29,095 nt of DNA from a virus (Duplodnaviria > Heunggongvirae > Uroviricota > Caudoviricetes), in IMG/VR virus record IMGVR_UViG_2872158770_000007; one strand, 5' to 3'. Shown in pieces: positions 2,043 to 29,095 of this stretch. The position numbers were made by a program, and so were the translations under genes. The notes beneath the pieces were generated by a model. It made no database searches. It was not told the DNA's origin and saw only the letters and a program-made list of their open reading frames with translations. The number at the start of each line of letters is the position of its first letter. Positions within the stretch are counted from its first letter, which is position 1.

Positions 2043-2477
2043 TCAATTCAAGTACTCCAATAGTTCCTGTACTATTCCGAGTAGTCTTTTTTTATCCTTT
2101 GCATTTGGTGATCTAATCTTACTCATCATTGCCAGATTCAAACATTCCGGTTTAAGCATCTGATGAAGGATCAGTATTGCCTCTACAATCATTACCTCTC
2201 GCATAGTTGCGAAGCACCATAGAATCGTTTTTGAGTACTGTTCACCATTTTCAATTTTGTTTTTAACGACATTGGAACTACTGAGGTACTCACGCCAGCC
2301 ATTTTCCTTTGAAGTGGGCTTTAGCTTTCTCGCATCCTTAACCCGCTGATAGATTTGCTTAGCACCGACATAATTAGAACCATCCTCAAACTGAAAGATA
2401 TAAACGAAACCAGCATATTCACCGGATAACATTTCCTCCTCGCTCCAATCATCCGAGTATTTCCATTCACTCATCAT
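2043..2477 (-). CDS. putative GIY-YIG-like nuclease domain protein
   Basis: 144-aa ORF. GFVYIFQFEDGSNYVGAKQ has the Y-I-F ... Y-V-G spacing (about 10 residues) typical of the GIY-YIG motif, followed by a conserved Arg. Weak, motif-level only. Confidence 0.35.
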   Translation of the reverse strand: MMSEWKYSDDWSEEEMLSGEYAGFVYIFQFEDGSNYVGAKQIYQRVKDARKLKPTSKENGWREYLSSSNVVKNKIENGEQYSKTILWCFATMREVMIVEAILILHQMLKPECLNLAMMSKIRSPNAKDKKRLLGIVQELLEYLN

Positions 2478-2513: not shown

Positions 2514-2963
2514 ATGAGCGATTTAAAAACACGATTAAAAGAATATGAAGGTACTAAAGAGTATCAGGCAAATTTGAAGTACTTCAGAAATGGGAAATTC
2601 TATCCATATGCTGATAGTTTAGGATGTAGTACTATTGTATATGGTCACTTAATTCAGGCGGGAGAAGATTTTAGTACTGGCATTACTGAAAGCGAAGCAG
2701 ACAAGTTACTATCTCGCGATTTAGCCAAAACAATTATGCAGGTACAGACATTAGGGTTAAATCTTCCCGATGACTGGAATGATTTTATTATTATCATGAC
2801 CTTCCAGTTAGGTATTGGCGGGGTGAAGAAATTCCGTAAGATGTTAGCAGCCCTGAAAGCACATGATTACCTTGAAGCAATTAAACAGGCTAAGTGTTCT
2901 CTATGGTACAGGCAGACACCAAACCGTGTGAATTCCATGATTGCAGTACTTAAAAACAAATAA
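2514..2963 (+). CDS. phage lysozyme (endolysin), T4 lysozyme-like glycoside hydrolase family 24
   Basis: 149 aa. Collinear with T4 lysozyme: YEG (Glu11 equivalent), YADSLG (Asp20), STIVYGH (Thr26), ITESEADKLLSRDL versus T4 ITKDEAEKLFNQDV, and C-terminal SLWYRQTPNRVNSMIAVL versus T4 SRWYNQTPNRAKRVITTF. Confidence 0.9.
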   Translation: MSDLKTRLKEYEGTKEYQANLKYFRNGKFYPYADSLGCSTIVYGHLIQAGEDFSTGITESEADKLLSRDLAKTIMQVQTLGLNLPDDWNDFIIIMTFQLGIGGVKKFRKMLAALKAHDYLEAIKQAKCSLWYRQTPNRVNSMIAVLKNK

Positions 2964-4448: not shown

Positions 4449-9399
<4,951 letters not shown>

Positions 9400-11164: not shown

Positions 11165-13378
11165 TTATGTATTACGTTTTTGACTACTTCTCACAGCTTG
11201 AGAAACACTATTGGCGTGTTTCTTAAGCATCTCATTAAATTTCTTGTCATCATCAGCTACATCACCCTGGATGATCAATGGTGCGTTAACGGTAATATCA
11301 CCTGAAGTACTTCCACCTTCTTGTTTATCCAAGAATGCTGTTAATTTCTTATTCGCTTCAGGCTGCACCACTCTCTCGCCCTGCTTAAGTACAAATGATT
11401 TGTTGTCATAACTTGCTGGTAGTTCATCTACCCCGCCATGGAACTGACCAGCAGCAGCACCCTTTGCAGTACTAATAATCGACATACCAAGTGAAAGTAC
11501 TTGTGCATAGTTTGCCAATGAAGCTGGCCAAGGGGTAGCGAGTGCTTGGGCCAATGCTGACTGAATTGAAAGTACTGTCTGTGCAATGCTTATGCTCTTA
11601 CTTAGGGTAAATGCAGCTTGTGCAGCCCCACTACTTTCCCCAAACGCATCAACCATGCCCTGTGATAGTGACTGTGCAGTACTTGAGAAGATACTTAACT
11701 GATCCTGTGCATTCTGGTTACTGATTTGGATGGCCTGTGCATTGTACTTTGCCGTGATCTCAGCTTTACGTTTCTCATAGTCCTCATGGCCTTTCAGCAA
11801 CAACTCATTCTGCTGAAGTTCAGCATTCATAGCATCAGCGTTATCTTTCAACTTCTGATCGGTATCGTTATAGGCTAATGGATTACCACCATTGATACGC
11901 TGATTCTGTTGCTGTGCCAGATACCCCTTCTGATTGTCATTGAGTAGACCGGAACCAATAAGAGCATTGGTATCTTTCAGACCCTGATTAGGATCTTGAT
12001 AACCAACCATTGAATTCAGTAAATCAGTACGTTGTTTAGCACCATATGCAGTAGCGTTCTTTAGCATTTCATCAGGATTGATACCGAGTACTTGAGCACT
12101 ATCGGTGATGGTTTTAAGAAGTGCCTTTTGTTGTCTGTCGAACTGCTGTAGACGTACCTGAAAACCATCTTCCCCAACTTGAGCAAGAGCAGCTTCCAGA
12201 TTACGTTGAGCCTGTAGGCGTTTTGCATCTGCCGCCTTTTGTGCCGCTTCTGCCTGTTTACGTTGTTGTTCTAACTTCTTCGCTGCATCTTCAGCTTCTT
12301 TTGCCTGATCAACCCATCCGCCAGTAGGAGCGGTAGCAACCGCAACATCGGACTTTAGGTTGTTTGCCAGTTCTTCTAAACGTGCCTTAGCCTGAGCGAA
12401 CTCATTACCCTTGTTGCCCTTATCATCCATGATGCCAGTATTGAGTGCTGCACCCTGGTAGTTTAATGCCCCTGCTGTACGTAATTTTTCCCAGATATCC
12501 AACATATCCTGTAGAGAACCCTTGGAAGTTTTAATACGTTCATTCAGATCTTCAAACAAACCTGCCTCGTGAGGTTTTTGATTTGCAGCATCATAGACAC
12601 TGTTCATGGCATTAACTAAAGGTGATAGGCCATCAGCAATAGTACCTTTAATGCTGGTAGTAAGTTTCCCAAGGTTTTTATCGAATTCAGCATATTTTTC
12701 AGCAGCATCATTAGTTACTTCAGCATTTTGTGACTGGATATAGGCTGTAGCTTGAGCCTCATTATTGAACTGCTGAAGAGTACTAATCATGTGGCTTGAG
12801 TCACTGGCTAACGTTTCCATTACGTTAACTATTTCACTCTGTGATTTACCTGCATCACGCATGGCGTAAAAGGTGTGGATCACAGCCTGCATACCACCAT
12901 CAGCCTGTTTTAAGTACTTGTTATAGTCCTGTAGGTTGAGTCCATATTCTTTAAGATCATCGGATACACCACCGCCAGCACGAAAAGCATCACCGAGCTT
13001 ATCCAAGGTATCCTTGTTGAAATCACCAAACTTATCAATCTCAAGACCGAGGCCACTAAACGCCGCTGATAGCTGTTGTAACTGAACCACGGACAATCCG
13101 GTACTCTTACTGATCTGGTTCATTTCACGCACATATTCACGTGATGATTCTACTAATGCTGCCAGGCCACCAATACCAATAGCCGCAGCACCCGCGATCC
13201 CGGTCATAGCAGTACCGAACCCGCCAGCCATACCAGTTATTCGGCCTGTGAACTCTTCAACAATGCCACCAGCAGTACTACCAAATTCCTCTAATGATTC
13301 AGTACCAGACCTTAAAGCACGCTGTAAACCGGAAGAATCACCCGTAATATCTACACGTATTCTATTATTATTTGCCAT
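11165..13378 (-). CDS. tail tape measure protein
   Basis: 737 aa. Gly/Ala-rich N-terminal region (GMAGGFGTAMTGIAGAAAIGIGGLAAL) and long coiled-coil Q/A/K-rich repeats, directly downstream of the G/GT chaperone pair. Length implies a long non-contractile tail. Confidence 0.85.
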   Translation of the reverse strand: MANNNRIRVDITGDSSGLQRALRSGTESLEEFGSTAGGIVEEFTGRITGMAGGFGTAMTGIAGAAAIGIGGLAALVESSREYVREMNQISKSTGLSVVQLQQLSAAFSGLGLEIDKFGDFNKDTLDKLGDAFRAGGGVSDDLKEYGLNLQDYNKYLKQADGGMQAVIHTFYAMRDAGKSQSEIVNVMETLASDSSHMISTLQQFNNEAQATAYIQSQNAEVTNDAAEKYAEFDKNLGKLTTSIKGTIADGLSPLVNAMNSVYDAANQKPHEAGLFEDLNERIKTSKGSLQDMLDIWEKLRTAGALNYQGAALNTGIMDDKGNKGNEFAQAKARLEELANNLKSDVAVATAPTGGWVDQAKEAEDAAKKLEQQRKQAEAAQKAADAKRLQAQRNLEAALAQVGEDGFQVRLQQFDRQQKALLKTITDSAQVLGINPDEMLKNATAYGAKQRTDLLNSMVGYQDPNQGLKDTNALIGSGLLNDNQKGYLAQQQNQRINGGNPLAYNDTDQKLKDNADAMNAELQQNELLLKGHEDYEKRKAEITAKYNAQAIQISNQNAQDQLSIFSSTAQSLSQGMVDAFGESSGAAQAAFTLSKSISIAQTVLSIQSALAQALATPWPASLANYAQVLSLGMSIISTAKGAAAGQFHGGVDELPASYDNKSFVLKQGERVVQPEANKKLTAFLDKQEGGSTSGDITVNAPLIIQGDVADDDKKFNEMLKKHANSVSQAVRSSQKRNT

Positions 13379-14113: not shown

Positions 14114-14587
14114 TTATTCGCCCGATTCTGGTTTTGGAGTAATCAGACCTGAATCAATTGCTTCACCATCAACTGCAAGGGTGAAAGTCTTAGTTACTAC
14201 TTCATCTTTATCACCACCGATAGTGGTACTTGAAACAAAGCAGGTATAAATTACAAAGAAACCTTCTTTTTTAGTTGCATCGGTAAAATAGCTTAGTTTT
14301 ACCTGACAACGTTTCTGATCGTCTGCAAGTTGTTCTAAATTCTGATGTACTGCATTATCTGGTAAGTAGTTAACTGCAAGAGAAATGTCCGGGATTGACT
14401 TAGTACCCAATAGCTTACGATCATAAGCATTATTGAATGTTTTTACGCTAATTACAGTACTTTCAAAGCCTGAAGTACTGAAGGTGTTTACCTCTGGTAC
14501 TTCTACAAAGTCAGTAGCAACTGTTTTACCAGCACTTGAACCTACTTCTACAGTAAGGTTAGCACCGGAAAAAATATCCATAGCCAT
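14114..14587 (-). CDS. major tail tube protein
   Basis: 157 aa, immediately upstream of the G/GT chaperones (conserved position of the major tail protein). Followed by a terminator. N-terminal ~145 aa paralogous to the N-terminus of the 883-aa protein. Confidence 0.65.
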   Translation of the reverse strand: MAMDIFSGANLTVEVGSSAGKTVATDFVEVPEVNTFSTSGFESTVISVKTFNNAYDRKLLGTKSIPDISLAVNYLPDNAVHQNLEQLADDQKRCQVKLSYFTDATKKEGFFVIYTCFVSSTTIGGDKDEVVTKTFTLAVDGEAIDSGLITPKPESGE

Positions 14588-14645: not shown

Positions 14646-17297
14646 TTATTTATTATTTAATAGCTGTTGTACTAAATCTTTTAGCTGATTAATTTCTTCT
14701 TGTTGGGCTTGAATAGCTCCCATCAAGTCCATCACTATTGGATTTAAATCAACACGTGGATGATCACGAGTGACAATCTCCCCTTCTATTTCAACTGTTT
14801 CTTCATCATGCTTAATGTACTGCGGAGCAGTCAACTCAGCATCTTCGGCGATAACACCAAACCTAACCCTTTCTTGTTCATCATCCTTGTAGATAAACGT
14901 TACTAAATCTTGTGACATTATCCGATCTAATGCTTCAACTGGATTTGCTGGAGTTATGTCTCTTTTAAACTCACGACCTGATGTACCTTGAGCTTGCATT
15001 ACTAACCATCCAAACCATGTTGTACCGTTCCCGCCTCGTACTCTTAAAGTACCACCACCGTCTATCTGAAGCTGAGAGCGATTTGCCCCTGGGTATCTTT
15101 GCATGTGCAATAAAGGGGAATATTTTTCACTATAGTTAATACCTGAGTCACCTGGCCCTGCATACATACCGTTAAAGGTGATGGTATTGGCATCTGTCGG
15201 TCCCGAAACAGCGGTATTAGTCATCCATCCTGATTGAACATCAGTTAGGATCGTTCCAGTCGGCCCTTTTAGCCCCCATAGTTTATCCTCTGCACCATTT
15301 TCAGAAATAAAAAGGGTGAGATCAGCCTGTCCAGTCTGTCCCATCGTTTTACCAACCCGAAAACCACCAGATATTTCAGTTGATGTACCAATGTTGCATA
15401 TCGAACGAATACGCCCTCCAGTTACATAACTACCAATTGCCGTAGAGGAAGGGGAAGAAGCAATAACATCCCATTGAGGACTAACTGAAGTACGACTACT
15501 CAGCAAGTTTTCAACCCAGCGTTTGGTAGTCGCGTCAGAATCAGAGACAGGATCTCCTGCTAAAGAAGTTGCACCCGTAGGACGAATCGCAGGCCATAAC
15601 TCAGCCTGAGTCTTAACACCAGTACCGCCCTGCGGAATTGCTAATGCTTTCCAGCCAGTGAAAGCACCCGCAATATATGTAGCTGAACCCCATTGCCCTC
15701 CATCATAAACCACTAATGCAGCGGAAGAATCAGCGGATTTAATAGTTGTTAAATTACTACCTTGATTAAAGCGATCCACCTGAAAGTTTAGGCGAGCACT
15801 CAAAGCATCTGTAGCCCCTGTCCCCCCCTGACCTATACCTAAAGCAATCCATCCAGTACCAGTACTTGCACCCCATGCCCCGTTATCCTGAATTCGGATA
15901 CGGTTAGTCAGGTCATTACTCATCAGATCGGTGTACGTAGCACCCTGAGTCAAACGGTTCACCTGTAGGTTAGTACGTGCTGTAGAGAGACTGGATAGAT
16001 CAGAAAGGTTACTCGCTTTCTTCATGGAAGCGGAATCAAGGGAAGTAATACTGTCAGCTAAAGCCGTTACCTCTGCATCTACTTCATCCATTGAGTAAAC
16101 AGCAAGGTTAATACGTGCTTCTTCCACGTCCCCCAGATCACTTAGATTACCTGCTATCGTAAGCTGGGCATCATCTGTAACCTTCCCTAAGCCAACATCA
16201 GTACTGGTAAGTACTACATCCTCACTGAGTACATGACCGTTGACCATACGTGTATCAGGTACTGAACCTGTATCTTCACTACTCAGTACTACATTTTCAC
16301 TAAGTACATGACCGTTCACTGTACGCGTGTCAGGTACTGAACCTGTATCTTCACTACTCAGTACTATATCTTCACTGAGTACATGACCATTAACTGTCCG
16401 TGTATCTGGTACAGAGCCGGTATCAGTACTGGTAAGTACTACATCCTCACTTAGAGGCTTACCATTCACAGTACGTGTATCAGGTACTGAACCTGTATCT
16501 TCACTGTTCAGTACTAAATTGGCCGTGAGTGCATGGCCGTTGATGGTACGTGTAAGGGGTACGTATCGCCCGTCCATCTGTGTAGCGGTATATATGCGTG
16601 TCCAGGCGGTTGTAGCGTTCTTTGCATAGATACTTAGAGTACCCGTCTTTGTCATCGCAAGAGAACTTACAGTAGTGCCATCTACAAGCCCTACTCCCAT
16701 CAGATCCGCCCCGGCAGGATTGCCTGCTTGAGATGATGGTACTTTGATGAAGCTGTTACCCGTAGGTACTGATGGTGAGTACTGAGGTACATCCGTAGTG
16801 TTCGAACCTAAACCGTAGTCCCCCTGATAGATTGGCGATAGTGCGTTAATGGTCATTGCACGTGCGATCACATCATGTGGGGCAAAACTGTATGCCTTGG
16901 TTACTACTGAACCTTTATCACCGTCCAACTTATAAGAGGTGATATAACCATTCACCATCGCATAAGTAATGGTATTTTCATCCTTATTCATCTGGTACTG
17001 AATGATGATCTGGAAAAGCTGCTGAGACTTAGCGGCATTATCCAAGAATTGATGTGTAGGATCATCAGGTAGGTAGTTAACTACAATATCAAATGGTGCT
17101 ACTGATTTATCAGATAGTAGTACTGTCCTGTAATCACTATCATACGTTTCAAAATTATTTGCTTCTGAATTTATTGTTAAGGTTGGAAAAGTATTAATCT
17201 GTTTAATTACTACATTGCCTGCTCCCTGTGGTGTTCTGTTACCAATATCAGCATTATACTGTACTGATAATTCTCTTCCTGAGAAAATATCACTCAT
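14646..17297 (-). CDS. tail-tube-domain protein fused to a repeat-containing fibre with C-terminal intramolecular chaperone (peptidase S74-like) domain
   Basis: 883 aa. Residues 1-150 align with the 157-aa tail tube protein (DIFSG..L.V, NTF.T, VNYLPDD..HQ.L, GDK..VVTK). Five tandem 25-aa repeats (PDTRTVNGHVLSEDVVLSSEDTGSV). Phage-fibre motifs GQGGTGATDALSARLNFQV and PQGGTGVKT. C-terminus SGREFKRDITP...RFGVIAEDAEL...QEEINQLKDL resembles the self-cleaving chaperone of tail fibres and endosialidases. Confidence 0.6.
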   Translation of the reverse strand: MSDIFSGRELSVQYNADIGNRTPQGAGNVVIKQINTFPTLTINSEANNFETYDSDYRTVLLSDKSVAPFDIVVNYLPDDPTHQFLDNAAKSQQLFQIIIQYQMNKDENTITYAMVNGYITSYKLDGDKGSVVTKAYSFAPHDVIARAMTINALSPIYQGDYGLGSNTTDVPQYSPSVPTGNSFIKVPSSQAGNPAGADLMGVGLVDGTTVSSLAMTKTGTLSIYAKNATTAWTRIYTATQMDGRYVPLTRTINGHALTANLVLNSEDTGSVPDTRTVNGKPLSEDVVLTSTDTGSVPDTRTVNGHVLSEDIVLSSEDTGSVPDTRTVNGHVLSENVVLSSEDTGSVPDTRMVNGHVLSEDVVLTSTDVGLGKVTDDAQLTIAGNLSDLGDVEEARINLAVYSMDEVDAEVTALADSITSLDSASMKKASNLSDLSSLSTARTNLQVNRLTQGATYTDLMSNDLTNRIRIQDNGAWGASTGTGWIALGIGQGGTGATDALSARLNFQVDRFNQGSNLTTIKSADSSAALVVYDGGQWGSATYIAGAFTGWKALAIPQGGTGVKTQAELWPAIRPTGATSLAGDPVSDSDATTKRWVENLLSSRTSVSPQWDVIASSPSSTAIGSYVTGGRIRSICNIGTSTEISGGFRVGKTMGQTGQADLTLFISENGAEDKLWGLKGPTGTILTDVQSGWMTNTAVSGPTDANTITFNGMYAGPGDSGINYSEKYSPLLHMQRYPGANRSQLQIDGGGTLRVRGGNGTTWFGWLVMQAQGTSGREFKRDITPANPVEALDRIMSQDLVTFIYKDDEQERVRFGVIAEDAELTAPQYIKHDEETVEIEGEIVTRDHPRVDLNPIVMDLMGAIQAQQEEINQLKDLVQQLLNNK
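16180..16560. repeat. tandem 75-bp direct repeats (about 5 copies) inside the fibre gene
   Basis: The unit tcaggtactgaacctgtatcttcact... recurs at 16255, 16330, (variant) 16405 and 16480. It encodes the 25-aa protein repeat. Confidence 0.85.
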
Positions 17298-18045: not shown

Positions 18046-23388
<5,343 letters not shown>

Positions 23389-23796
23389 TAGACTGGCCCC
23401 CTGAATCTCCAGACAACCAGTATCACTTAAATAAGTGATAGTCTTAATACTAGTTTTTAGACTAGTCATTGGAGTACAGATGATTGATGTCTTAGGGCCG
23501 GAGAAACGCAGACGGCGTACCACACAGGAAAAGATCGCAATTGTTCAGCAGAGCTTTGAACCGGGGATGACGGTCTCCCTCGTTGCCCGGCAACATGGTG
23601 TAGCAGCCAGCCAGTTATTTCTCTGGCGTAAGCAATACCAGGAAGGAAGTCTTACTGCTGTGGCCGCCGGAGAACAGGTTGTTCCTGCCTCTGAACTTGC
23701 TGCCGCCATGAAGCAGATTAAAGAACTCCAGAGCCTGCTCGGCAAGAAAACGATGGAAAATGAACTCCTCAAAGAAGCCGTTGAATATGGACGGGC

Positions 23797-26181
<2,385 letters not shown>

Positions 26182-28039: not shown

Positions 28040-28591
28040 TTATCCTATTAATTTTTCACATTGCTCAAAACGCATTGGCCTGAACTCTCCCTGTACCGCC
28101 CATACACCGGCCTCTCTGAGAATTGGGTAATACGTTTTATCTCTGACGGGTACGATCACCTTCTCGCAGTACTGGCGAATGCTTTTTATGAGTACTGGAA
28201 AGATCAGACGGTCAATGTTCTCTTCTGTGTACCTTCTATTTAATCGGGCAACCTCGAAATCACCTGTAACCAGAGGAATAGCAGAACCACCATGTACACC
28301 GAGATCATCAAGCCACTGCTGGTTATGTACTTTCATATCCCTTGTCATCTGCCGAAGGAATGGTAAGTACTCGTATGGTTCACCACGGCCAGTAGTAATC
28401 ACACAATACAAACCGTTATCCCTGAACCATGCCGCCTTGCTTTCAATAAGCATTAGTTGCCCATGAAGTACTTCTTCTTCCCATAGGCCGATCTGCCTGA
28501 TTCCCTCGCGTTCTACATGGCTGACCAACTCAACCCCCAGCAACTGACCACCCAAACTTGTTATCGGTATTGCCCAATTATCAATGTTCAT
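28040..28591 (-). CDS. degenerate EAL-like domain protein (YdiV-like?), function uncertain
   Basis: 183 aa. QLLGVELVSHVEREG resembles the EAL/EVL motif region of degenerate EAL proteins. DDLGVHGGSAIPL sits where active EAL domains have DDFGTGYSSL. C-terminal AVQGEF is where QGY would be. Too short for a complete catalytic EAL domain. Confidence 0.3.
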   Translation of the reverse strand: MNIDNWAIPITSLGGQLLGVELVSHVEREGIRQIGLWEEEVLHGQLMLIESKAAWFRDNGLYCVITTGRGEPYEYLPFLRQMTRDMKVHNQQWLDDLGVHGGSAIPLVTGDFEVARLNRRYTEENIDRLIFPVLIKSIRQYCEKVIVPVRDKTYYPILREAGVWAVQGEFRPMRFEQCEKLIG

Positions 28592-28742
28592 AACTTTGCT
28601 CGTTACGCTTTAAGTTATTGATAATTGATCATTTTTAAAACATTGGCAATTAAATCGATCAATTTTATTGATCATTACAATAGAATTAATCATTCAAAGT
28701 GGTAAACAAAGGGGTGCTGGATTTTTGGGAAACTGACTGCAA

Positions 28743-28762
28743 TACTGTACATATATACAGTA
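28743..28762 (+). promoter_or_regulatory. LexA (SOS) box TACTGTACATATATACAGTA, 21 bp upstream of the ATG at 28784
   Basis: CTGT-N8-ACAG with an AT-rich spacer, 19/20 match to the enterobacterial consensus TACTGTATATATATACAGTA. Followed by AGGAGG (28771-28776) and the ATG. Confidence 0.8.
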
Positions 28763-28783
28763 ATACATAGAGGAGGGTAACAA

Positions 28784-29095
28784 ATGAGCAAAGACGGCTA
28801 TGATCCATCCATTACGCGAGGGGTTCAGAAGTTCTCACATAACGGTCGCTGGGCAACCGTGTGTTATTGGGGATCTGCACTAACAGAATTTCATTATGGG
28901 GATAGGGTATTCTTCCAGAATCAGTACAGGGAATACTGGTTAGGTACTATAGAGAGAGATTGTTTTGTACTTACCTGTGAAACACCACTAATAAGTGTTA
29001 TTGATGGGTTAGCATATCTATCTGCTGAGTACCGGATGAATCAAAGCAGTGAAGAAGGTGATTGGTTCTGTGATCAGGGGGAACTACCCTTCTGA
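28784..29095 (+). CDS. SOS-regulated small protein of unknown function
   Basis: 103-aa ORF with a strong RBS and a LexA box overlapping its promoter. No motif recognised. Stop at the window end. Confidence 0.5.
   Translation: MSKDGYDPSITRGVQKFSHNGRWATVCYWGSALTEFHYGDRVFFQNQYREYWLGTIERDCFVLTCETPLISVIDGLAYLSAEYRMNQSSEEGDWFCDQGELPF

Follow-up and report, generated by a model that had tools for sequence, protein, structure and literature searches.

A putatively LexA-controlled protein family with a conserved C-terminal tail on prophages and plasmids of Enterobacterales

LexA-controlled genes on mobile elements set when prophages awaken and how damaged cells behave, and, to our knowledge, few of them are understood (Tum, GfoA/GftA, AntC and DinI). 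What is the role of a small gene that lies behind a near-consensus LexA box at the edge of a prophage, and is this box a genuine switch? The gene in question is located on a stretch of 29,095 nucleotides from a virus of the class Caudoviricetes (IMG/VR record IMGVR_UViG_2872158770_000007; the whole stretch is hereafter called the window), which is a siphoviral prophage of Shigella sonnei riddled with insertion sequences (IS). It is a complete coding sequence for 103 amino acids (aa) at positions 28784–29095 on the plus strand, stop codon included, and its TGA ends on the final base of the window. A first reading of this DNA from its letters alone (the sequence-only reading) had proposed that the LexA box drives the gene and had named antirepressors, division inhibitors and toxins as frequent products of such genes. 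The protein belongs to a further family restricted to Enterobacterales, which is coupled to a LexA box in approximately 130 independent loci, on at least five phage types and some plasmids. We tentatively propose that it is an SOS-timed accessory protein of mobile elements that is directed at the host.

The LexA operator and its conservation across the family

The LexA operator (SOS box) TACTGTACATATATACAGTA occupies positions 28743–28762 on the plus strand and differs from the 20-mer LexA consensus of E. coli, TACTGTATATATATACAGTA, by one mismatch. It has the form of an E. coli-type operator, a palindrome TACTG(TA)5CAGTA with the invariant CTG...CAG. All 29,095 bp were scanned on both strands for LexA-type sites with up to three mismatches, and the expectation was derived from dinucleotide shuffles. 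This revealed 28743–28762 as the sole match in the window at an expectation of 0.01 matches, and the looser core CTGT-N8-ACAG also occurred only once, at the same site. The sequence-only reading had placed its near-consensus box correctly, and the spacing, ribosome-binding site, start codon and product length that it gave were confirmed as well.

The box lies over a conserved extended −10 element of the putative promoter, TGcAATACT (28738–28746, plus strand; TG at 28738–28739, C, and AATACT at 28741–28746), which overlaps the left arm of the operator. A candidate −35 element, TGGATT (28718–28723, plus strand), is located 17 nt 5′ of the −10 hexamer and agrees with the consensus in three of six positions. 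Such weakness is expected, because the element adjoins an extended −10, and a CTGGAT(C/T)T block is present at a similar distance in many of the orthologous upstream regions. A simple consensus promoter scan did not call the −35 and −10 elements of this gene. The end of the box and the ATG at 28784 are 21 nt apart, and a Shine-Dalgarno sequence, GAGGAGGG (28770–28777, plus strand), precedes the start codon by 6 nt; most of the orthologous loci also have a GGAGG-type motif in this place. The overlap of box and −10 element resembles the layout of SOS promoter p95 of phage 186, for which the −10 element is annotated as falling on the beginning of the LexA site.

Megablast comparisons of the region with complete E. 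coli genomes and with phage records gave no match. The host was recognised from the exact 103-aa protein, which is encoded on 449 contigs that carry the names Shigella sonnei or E. coli. The close homologues of the protein (subfamily A) form 21 clusters, a search among 1.84 billion proteins gave only 37 representatives, and the loci retrieved (6 genomic and 49 viral) all stem from Enterobacterales. UniRef attaches the name 'LF-82' to the protein, which holds no functional information. For subfamily A, a CTG...CAG site with at most four mismatches within 60 bp 5′ of the gene was counted as a LexA box. Such a box was present in 57 of the 64 orthologous loci, and no further site of this kind was detected in the 693,802 bp that these loci comprise. 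Protein identity across the 64-locus set goes down to 37–50%. An alignment of 41 distinct upstream regions contained only one conserved block, TGCAATACTGTA...ATACAGT, which represents the extended −10 element (TG-n-AATACT) and, with its 3′ part, the left arm of the operator. The median dN/dS of 0.185 indicates purifying selection on the protein.

Subfamily A also occurs on plasmids of Serratia, Enterobacter and Cronobacter, and the plasmids that carry the family are conjugative or mobilizable. A LexA box is present with the Enterobacter plasmid copy, and the individual check of plasmid pVKH10 is in agreement. The copy on the Serratia ureilytica plasmid NZ_CP070509.1 (locus L072, 3760–3860) has no LexA box and is instead preceded by the near-palindrome ATCCGATATATGTCGGAT, a sequence which suggests that the Serratia plasmid copies are under a different regulator. 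Genes for a type IA topoisomerase, H-NS, Hha and a SprT-like protein are located near this copy.

The homology search that the sequence-only reading had recommended did recover a family of distant relatives, but no function came with it. The 103-aa protein matched PHROG 2100, which is annotated as 'unknown function' (E = 4.8e-9; residues 25–91 on profile positions 9–77 of 85), a match that two alignments supported, and a tblastn search matched it to gp46 of the P2-like phage Cartapus. These relatives (subfamily B) are 85–90 aa long compared to approximately 103 aa in subfamily A, and the two subfamilies have the core VFFQ...YWLG in common and share only about 25–39% identity. Subfamily B is carried by P22-like Salmonella phages such as SE1, SSU5-like phage-plasmids, P2-like Klebsiella and Escherichia phages and the Serratia phage BZS1, and the whole family is distributed over five unrelated phage types and plasmids. 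The subfamily of the window differs from PHROG 2100 in its protein end, QxELPF-COOH and not FDDDFxL[TF], and in its host element, namely siphoviruses with a large serine recombinase.

The coupling to LexA extends to these distant relatives. A LexA box was located just upstream of the gene in all five hand-checked examples (Cartapus, SE1, SSU5, a Klebsiella P2-like phage and BZS1), and a LexA site was found upstream in 70 of 70 distinct viral subfamily-B loci, with none elsewhere in their 402,731 bp. Sixty-four of these sites are within 70 bp of the gene; the other six, at 200–585 bp upstream, are in an operon position. In P2-like phages, the box stands at the start of an operon made up of a small open reading frame (ORF), DinI and then the homologue. 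One P22-like locus (L107, IMG/VR contig 2630968702_000010) contains two identical LexA boxes, 15 and 219 bp 5′ of the subfamily-B gene. In both subfamilies together, the conserved box is linked to the gene, and the 1.1 Mb of loci contain no further site.

For phiBZS1_p37, a homologue of the window protein, the BZS1 genome paper had already pointed out an upstream LexA motif and left the function of the protein open (PMC7556043); apart from this remark, no characterisation of the family was found in the literature. A paper on STM14_3218-3220 of Gifsy-1 proved to be unrelated to the family. The LexA switch is a device of a known kind, and the LexA association of a distant relative has been published (PMC7556043). 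The family of proteins is uncharacterised, and so are its fold and the conserved tail. Judged by sequence, the site at 28743–28762 is well supported as a genuine LexA switch, well beyond chance, and SOS control of the 103-aa gene is as well supported as such an analysis allows. The proposal that the box drives the small gene is likewise strongly supported by the promoter layout together with the conservation over more than 130 loci.

Predicted fold and C-terminal tail of the protein

The 103-aa protein is acidic, with an isoelectric point (pI) of 4.58 and 15 acidic versus 8 basic residues. AlphaFold2, run with the family alignment, returned a model with a mean predicted local distance difference test score (pLDDT) of 84.8, which consists of five strands (residues 14–63), a long helix (72–91) and a low-confidence tail (92–103). 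The model of subfamily B has the same layout (pLDDT 79.9). According to these predictions the protein is soluble, of the beta+alpha type and not a membrane toxin. No match for the protein was obtained in Pfam, NCBIfam and PADLOC, and PHROG 2100 was the sole match, in agreement with the sequence-only reading, in which no motif had been recognised. The comparison of the model with the folds in PDB and BFVD also gave no match. A profile search against PDB sequences returned only designed toroid repeat proteins; this is an artefact of summed repeats, as no single stretch was over the threshold. The body of the protein does not have the OB-fold (oligonucleotide/oligosaccharide-binding fold) domain by which SSB proteins bind single-stranded DNA. 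It also has neither a SulA domain (Pfam) nor the form of a short hydrophobic membrane peptide, being 103 aa long without a membrane segment.

The best-conserved part of the protein is its end. In the window the tail comprises residues 92–103 (GDWFCDQGELPF; codons at 29057–29092, plus strand), for which we propose a function as docking peptide, and the protein terminates in DWFCDQGELPF-COOH. Residues W94, F95, Q98, L101, P102 and F103 are invariant in the alignment of the close family, and 6 of its 16 invariant columns fall within the last 10 residues. Conservation of the tail is 0.88 compared to 0.65 for the preceding helix, and the ELPF-COOH end is retained down to approximately 26% identity. 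The pLDDT of the tail is approximately 61. Subfamily B has ends of the type FDDDFxL[TF], for example KFMDFDDDFQLT, QFDDDFTLF and DPNLSLF; other ends are PNLSLF, NLPLF, NYSLF and DFTLF, and many proteins end in L-T or L-Q.

By sequence, the closest resemblance of this tail is to the C-terminal tip of SSB (SSB-Ct), of which DDDLPF is a variant. The SSB-Ct sequence itself is DDDIPF (PMC5872125). The tail of subfamily A is similarly flexible and acidic and ends in [DE]-[IL]-P-F with a free carboxylate (...EEGDWFCDQGELPF-COOH in the window), and subfamily B, with its (M)DFDDD, resembles the SSB end MDFDDDIPF. In contrast to SSB-Ct, however, acidic residues are fewer in subfamily A, which also has an invariant Gln, the P-F end is absent from subfamily B, and the protein body is not that of SSB.

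Clamp-binding motifs seem less close. Their consensus is QL[SD]LF, and the corresponding hexamers are QLSLPL in Hda and QLVLGL in Pol IV. The C-terminal QGELPF agrees with the hexamer in positions 1, 4 and 6 (Q1, L4 and an aromatic or aliphatic last residue), its P5 is as in Hda, so that L-P-F parallels L-P-L, and the hydrophobic position 2 is absent. Subfamily B is mixed in this respect: ends such as NLSLF resemble the pentamer QLSLF, whereas many others end in L-T, and an acidic run precedes the motif. A DDWF patch that the tail has in common with the C-terminus of DinI provides a weak lead.

Possible functions of the protein

The reading that we favour is as follows. In the lysogen, host LexA would bind the box at 28743–28762, cover the extended −10 element and the likely start site and thereby occlude RNA polymerase, which would keep the 103-aa gene off. 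Upon DNA damage, activated RecA would cause LexA to cleave itself, and the 103-aa gene would be transcribed alone. Its product would be a small acidic protein of unrecognised fold, with a flexible C-terminal peptide as the most constrained feature of the family. A floppy, invariant carboxy-terminal peptide is the usual way of engaging bacterial replication and repair hubs. It is this conserved peptide together with the distribution of the family that leads us to favour an accessory protein whose tail docks on a conserved hub protein of host replication or repair. The leading guess for the docking site are the SSB-binding pockets of the SSB partner proteins, for which the protein might compete or to which it might be recruited during SOS, and it would act in a host-directed accessory role in the manner of DinI. 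As a whole, this reading is put forward tentatively, with the probability falling somewhat short of even. A more far-reaching version, in which the family is the first non-SSB class with a mimic of the SSB tip (or of a clamp peptide) and serves, as a LexA-timed decoy of a replisome hub, to occupy the pockets of repair or restart enzymes of the host, is doubtful; if correct, the decoy would rewire or prolong the SOS state to the benefit of the element.

Known systems provide a frame for this comparison. Like the p95-tum(-orf97) unit of phage 186 and the Gifsy units composed of a LexA box, dinI and gftA, the window gene has a box over the −10 element of a dedicated promoter in front of a small gene, and the SOS promoter of these temperate phages, 186 and Gifsy, is located away from the immunity region. 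In the P2-like relatives, the homologue is even located within an SOS operon of this kind, after the small ORF and DinI. Unlike in these units, the protein is unrelated in sequence to Tum, DinI and GftA, has another predicted fold and a conserved C-terminal peptide, and its family is also found on plasmids and in phages that are induced by other routes.

It may be considered that the 103-aa protein is itself the trigger of induction, i.e. that lytic growth or the divergent late operon is started by it as an antirepressor or activator, in a similar way to Tum, GfoA or AntC, with LexA as the sole sensor of damage in these siphophages with serine recombinases. We regard this as unlikely, although LexA control and location fit an antirepressor-type layout. 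The gene is a core gene in a fixed place, divergent from the small terminase (TerS) gene and the late operon, the window has no LexA box other than that of the gene, and the same is true of the 694 kb that the related loci comprise, and no CI/Cro-type, S24 or helix-turn-helix (HTH) repressor was recognisable in the phage group with Pfam and PHROGs (window and loci L002 and L008). Furthermore, LexA-controlled antirepressors outside the immunity region have a precedent (PMC3121763). On the other side, hhalign comparisons to GftA and Tum gave probabilities of 0.2–0.6%, which means no homology, and gp44 of Cartapus showed no similarity to Tum. Relatives sit beside CI-type repressors, as in BZS1 (PMC7556043), and are carried by plasmids and by phages with other induction routes, such as repressor cleavage in P22 (PMC3121763). 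The antirepressor role put forward in the sequence-only reading is thus not sustained as stated. The best-conserved part of the protein, the short tail, spans elements with unrelated repressors, which points to a conserved host target. A conserved host protein is more likely the target than a phage repressor, because fold, tail and box recur amid unrelated lysogeny circuits, namely those of P22-like phages, of BZS1 with its CI-type repressor, of P2-like phages with their pair of small ORF and DinI, and of plasmids. Should the protein be the trigger after all, it would represent a new class of antirepressors or activators in repressor-less phages with serine recombinases.

If a host protein is the target, the tail could also be a clamp motif which occupies DnaN in SOS and thereby slows replication or excludes other polymerases. 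The invariant Gln98, Leu101 and Phe103 would be in line with this, as would the subfamily-B ends PNLSLF, NLPLF, NYSLF and DFTLF, which fit the pattern Q/N-hydrophobic-x-L-F. Nevertheless, clamp binding is quite unlikely: position 2 in subfamily A is not hydrophobic (G, Q, R, H or W), the L-T and L-Q ends of many subfamily-B tails depart from L-F, the acidic run FDDD is foreign to clamp motifs, and the strict C-terminal placement suggests that the free carboxylate is read, as in SSB-Ct. Binding of the acidic helix and tail to RecA filaments, by which the protein would tune the cleavage of LexA, UmuD or a repressor, is improbable. The protein does resemble DinI in being small, acidic and LexA-controlled, often phage-borne and, in P2-like phages, co-transcribed with DinI, and its [ED]DDWF patch near the C-terminus resembles the end of Gifsy-2 DinI, ...ESADDWFY. 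This similarity, however, spans four residues only; there is no Pfam match to DinI, hhalign against Tum, which has a DinI domain, gave a probability of 0.24%, the predicted order of secondary structure elements differs, and next to DinI a second protein with its function would be redundant in the operon. An SOS-induced division inhibitor or toxin, as the sequence-only reading had also suggested, is very improbable. Prophage SOS genes of that kind are known (SfiC, Kil and TisB), and a conserved peptide could in principle mimic the C-terminal peptide of FtsZ. The tail is nonetheless unlike this peptide, D-I-P-x-F-L, no SulA or other Pfam domain was found in the acidic, soluble protein, which is without a membrane segment, and the gene is stably intact on 449 contigs. 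The least probable role is that of a recombination directionality factor that couples excision by the serine recombinase to SOS. Such factors are small and diverse, and the phage group uses a serine recombinase of 644 aa; yet the family is also present on plasmids and in BZS1, which has a tyrosine integrase and its own excisionase, and a 61-aa gene that adjoins the serine recombinase is a better-placed candidate.

Docking on a host hub, the reading we prefer, would be of interest beyond this prophage. The family occurs in pathogens, among them Shigella sonnei/E. coli (the 449 contigs), Salmonella with its P22-like phages and Klebsiella with its phage-plasmids, and the C-terminal peptide of 6–12 residues offers a precise handle on it. 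Were the tail to dock on SSB partners or on the clamp, it would act as a natural peptide inhibitor at the interface of a validated antibacterial target, and it would reveal a new route by which prophages manipulate the SOS response.

Prophage setting and neighbouring genes

According to PHROG scans, the window is a siphovirus-type prophage, the late genes of which are encoded on the minus strand. These comprise the small terminase (25040–25582), the large terminase, the tape measure (11165–13378), portal, major tail protein and a head protein, the N-terminal part of which is protease-like. The large terminase gene is split into two fragments (21888–23348 and 24679–25122, minus strand) by an IS3-family element (23435–24708), and a second IS3-family insertion (7399–8603) is located beside a J-like tail gene. 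With these two insertions the prophage is defective in this host; the LexA-box gene is intact despite this damage. The phage group to which it belongs has genomes of 31–36 kb that carry HNH genes as well as genes for a large serine recombinase and for a replication protein similar to helicases or primases. Two consecutive minus-strand genes (14114–14587 and 14646–17297) both match phrog_158 (major tail protein) with their N-terminal 150 residues. The second, of 883 aa, runs on into tail-fibre-like repeats and possibly represents a tail-tube protein with a decoration or an extension. One end of the prophage, the tail-distal one, carries a lysozyme gene (2514–2963, plus strand) and beside it, on the opposite strand, a gene similar to SegE-type GIY-YIG homing endonucleases (2043–2477, minus strand).

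The 103-aa gene is a lone plus-strand unit, divergent from the block that leads to the packaging and late operon and with variable cargo on its other side; in the phage group, the position of the orthologue is fixed and always divergent from TerS and the late operon. Past the end of the window follow a 222-aa AT-rich membrane protein, encoded on the same strand, and minus-strand genes including HNH nucleases, then the 644-aa large serine recombinase. In locus L002 (6315–6372), a perfect inverted repeat with arms of 14 bp, CACGTACTGCTCAC / GTGAGCAGTACGTG, and a loop of 25 nt is located directly after the stop codon and would fold as RNA with −28.7 kcal/mol (z = −2.97). This hairpin is not a standard intrinsic terminator, because it is without a U tract. 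Rfam returned nothing meaningful for the LexA-box region and the downstream hairpin.

The divergent neighbour of the 103-aa gene (28040–28591, minus strand) codes for a protein of 183 aa and is a variable cargo gene outside the SOS unit. Its C-terminal half is weakly EAL-like, with a match to NCBIfam NF008617 (C-terminal half of an EAL cyclic di-GMP phosphodiesterase; E = 2.7e-5, far below the curated cut-off), and it has a weak match to PHROG 32988. Conceivably, it is an EAL-like cargo protein that has degenerated. Its gene is interrupted by IS21 (istA/istB) in some of the S. sonnei genomes. The divergent intergenic region contains five ATTGAT(C/A)ATT repeats and three GATC (Dam) sites (28576–28694), and 5 of the 12 matches to the repeat in the window thus fall within 120 bp. 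This cluster may serve some regulator as an operator for the minus-strand promoter from which the 183-aa gene would be read. The ATTGATCATT motif clusters nowhere else in the window or in L002. It had also been considered as a second operator tied to an early promoter, and was rejected, as no such link was found and the clustering is confined to this intergenic region.

On the side distal to the late operon, related phages have a hot spot for cargo genes (L002 6445–8669; L008 7106–7912; L011 8449–10440; L018 7888–9000). Its content varies from phage to phage and includes the family of the 222-aa membrane protein, type II and type IV methyl-directed restriction enzymes, the candidate defence protein PDC-S31 and a GTPase-like protein.
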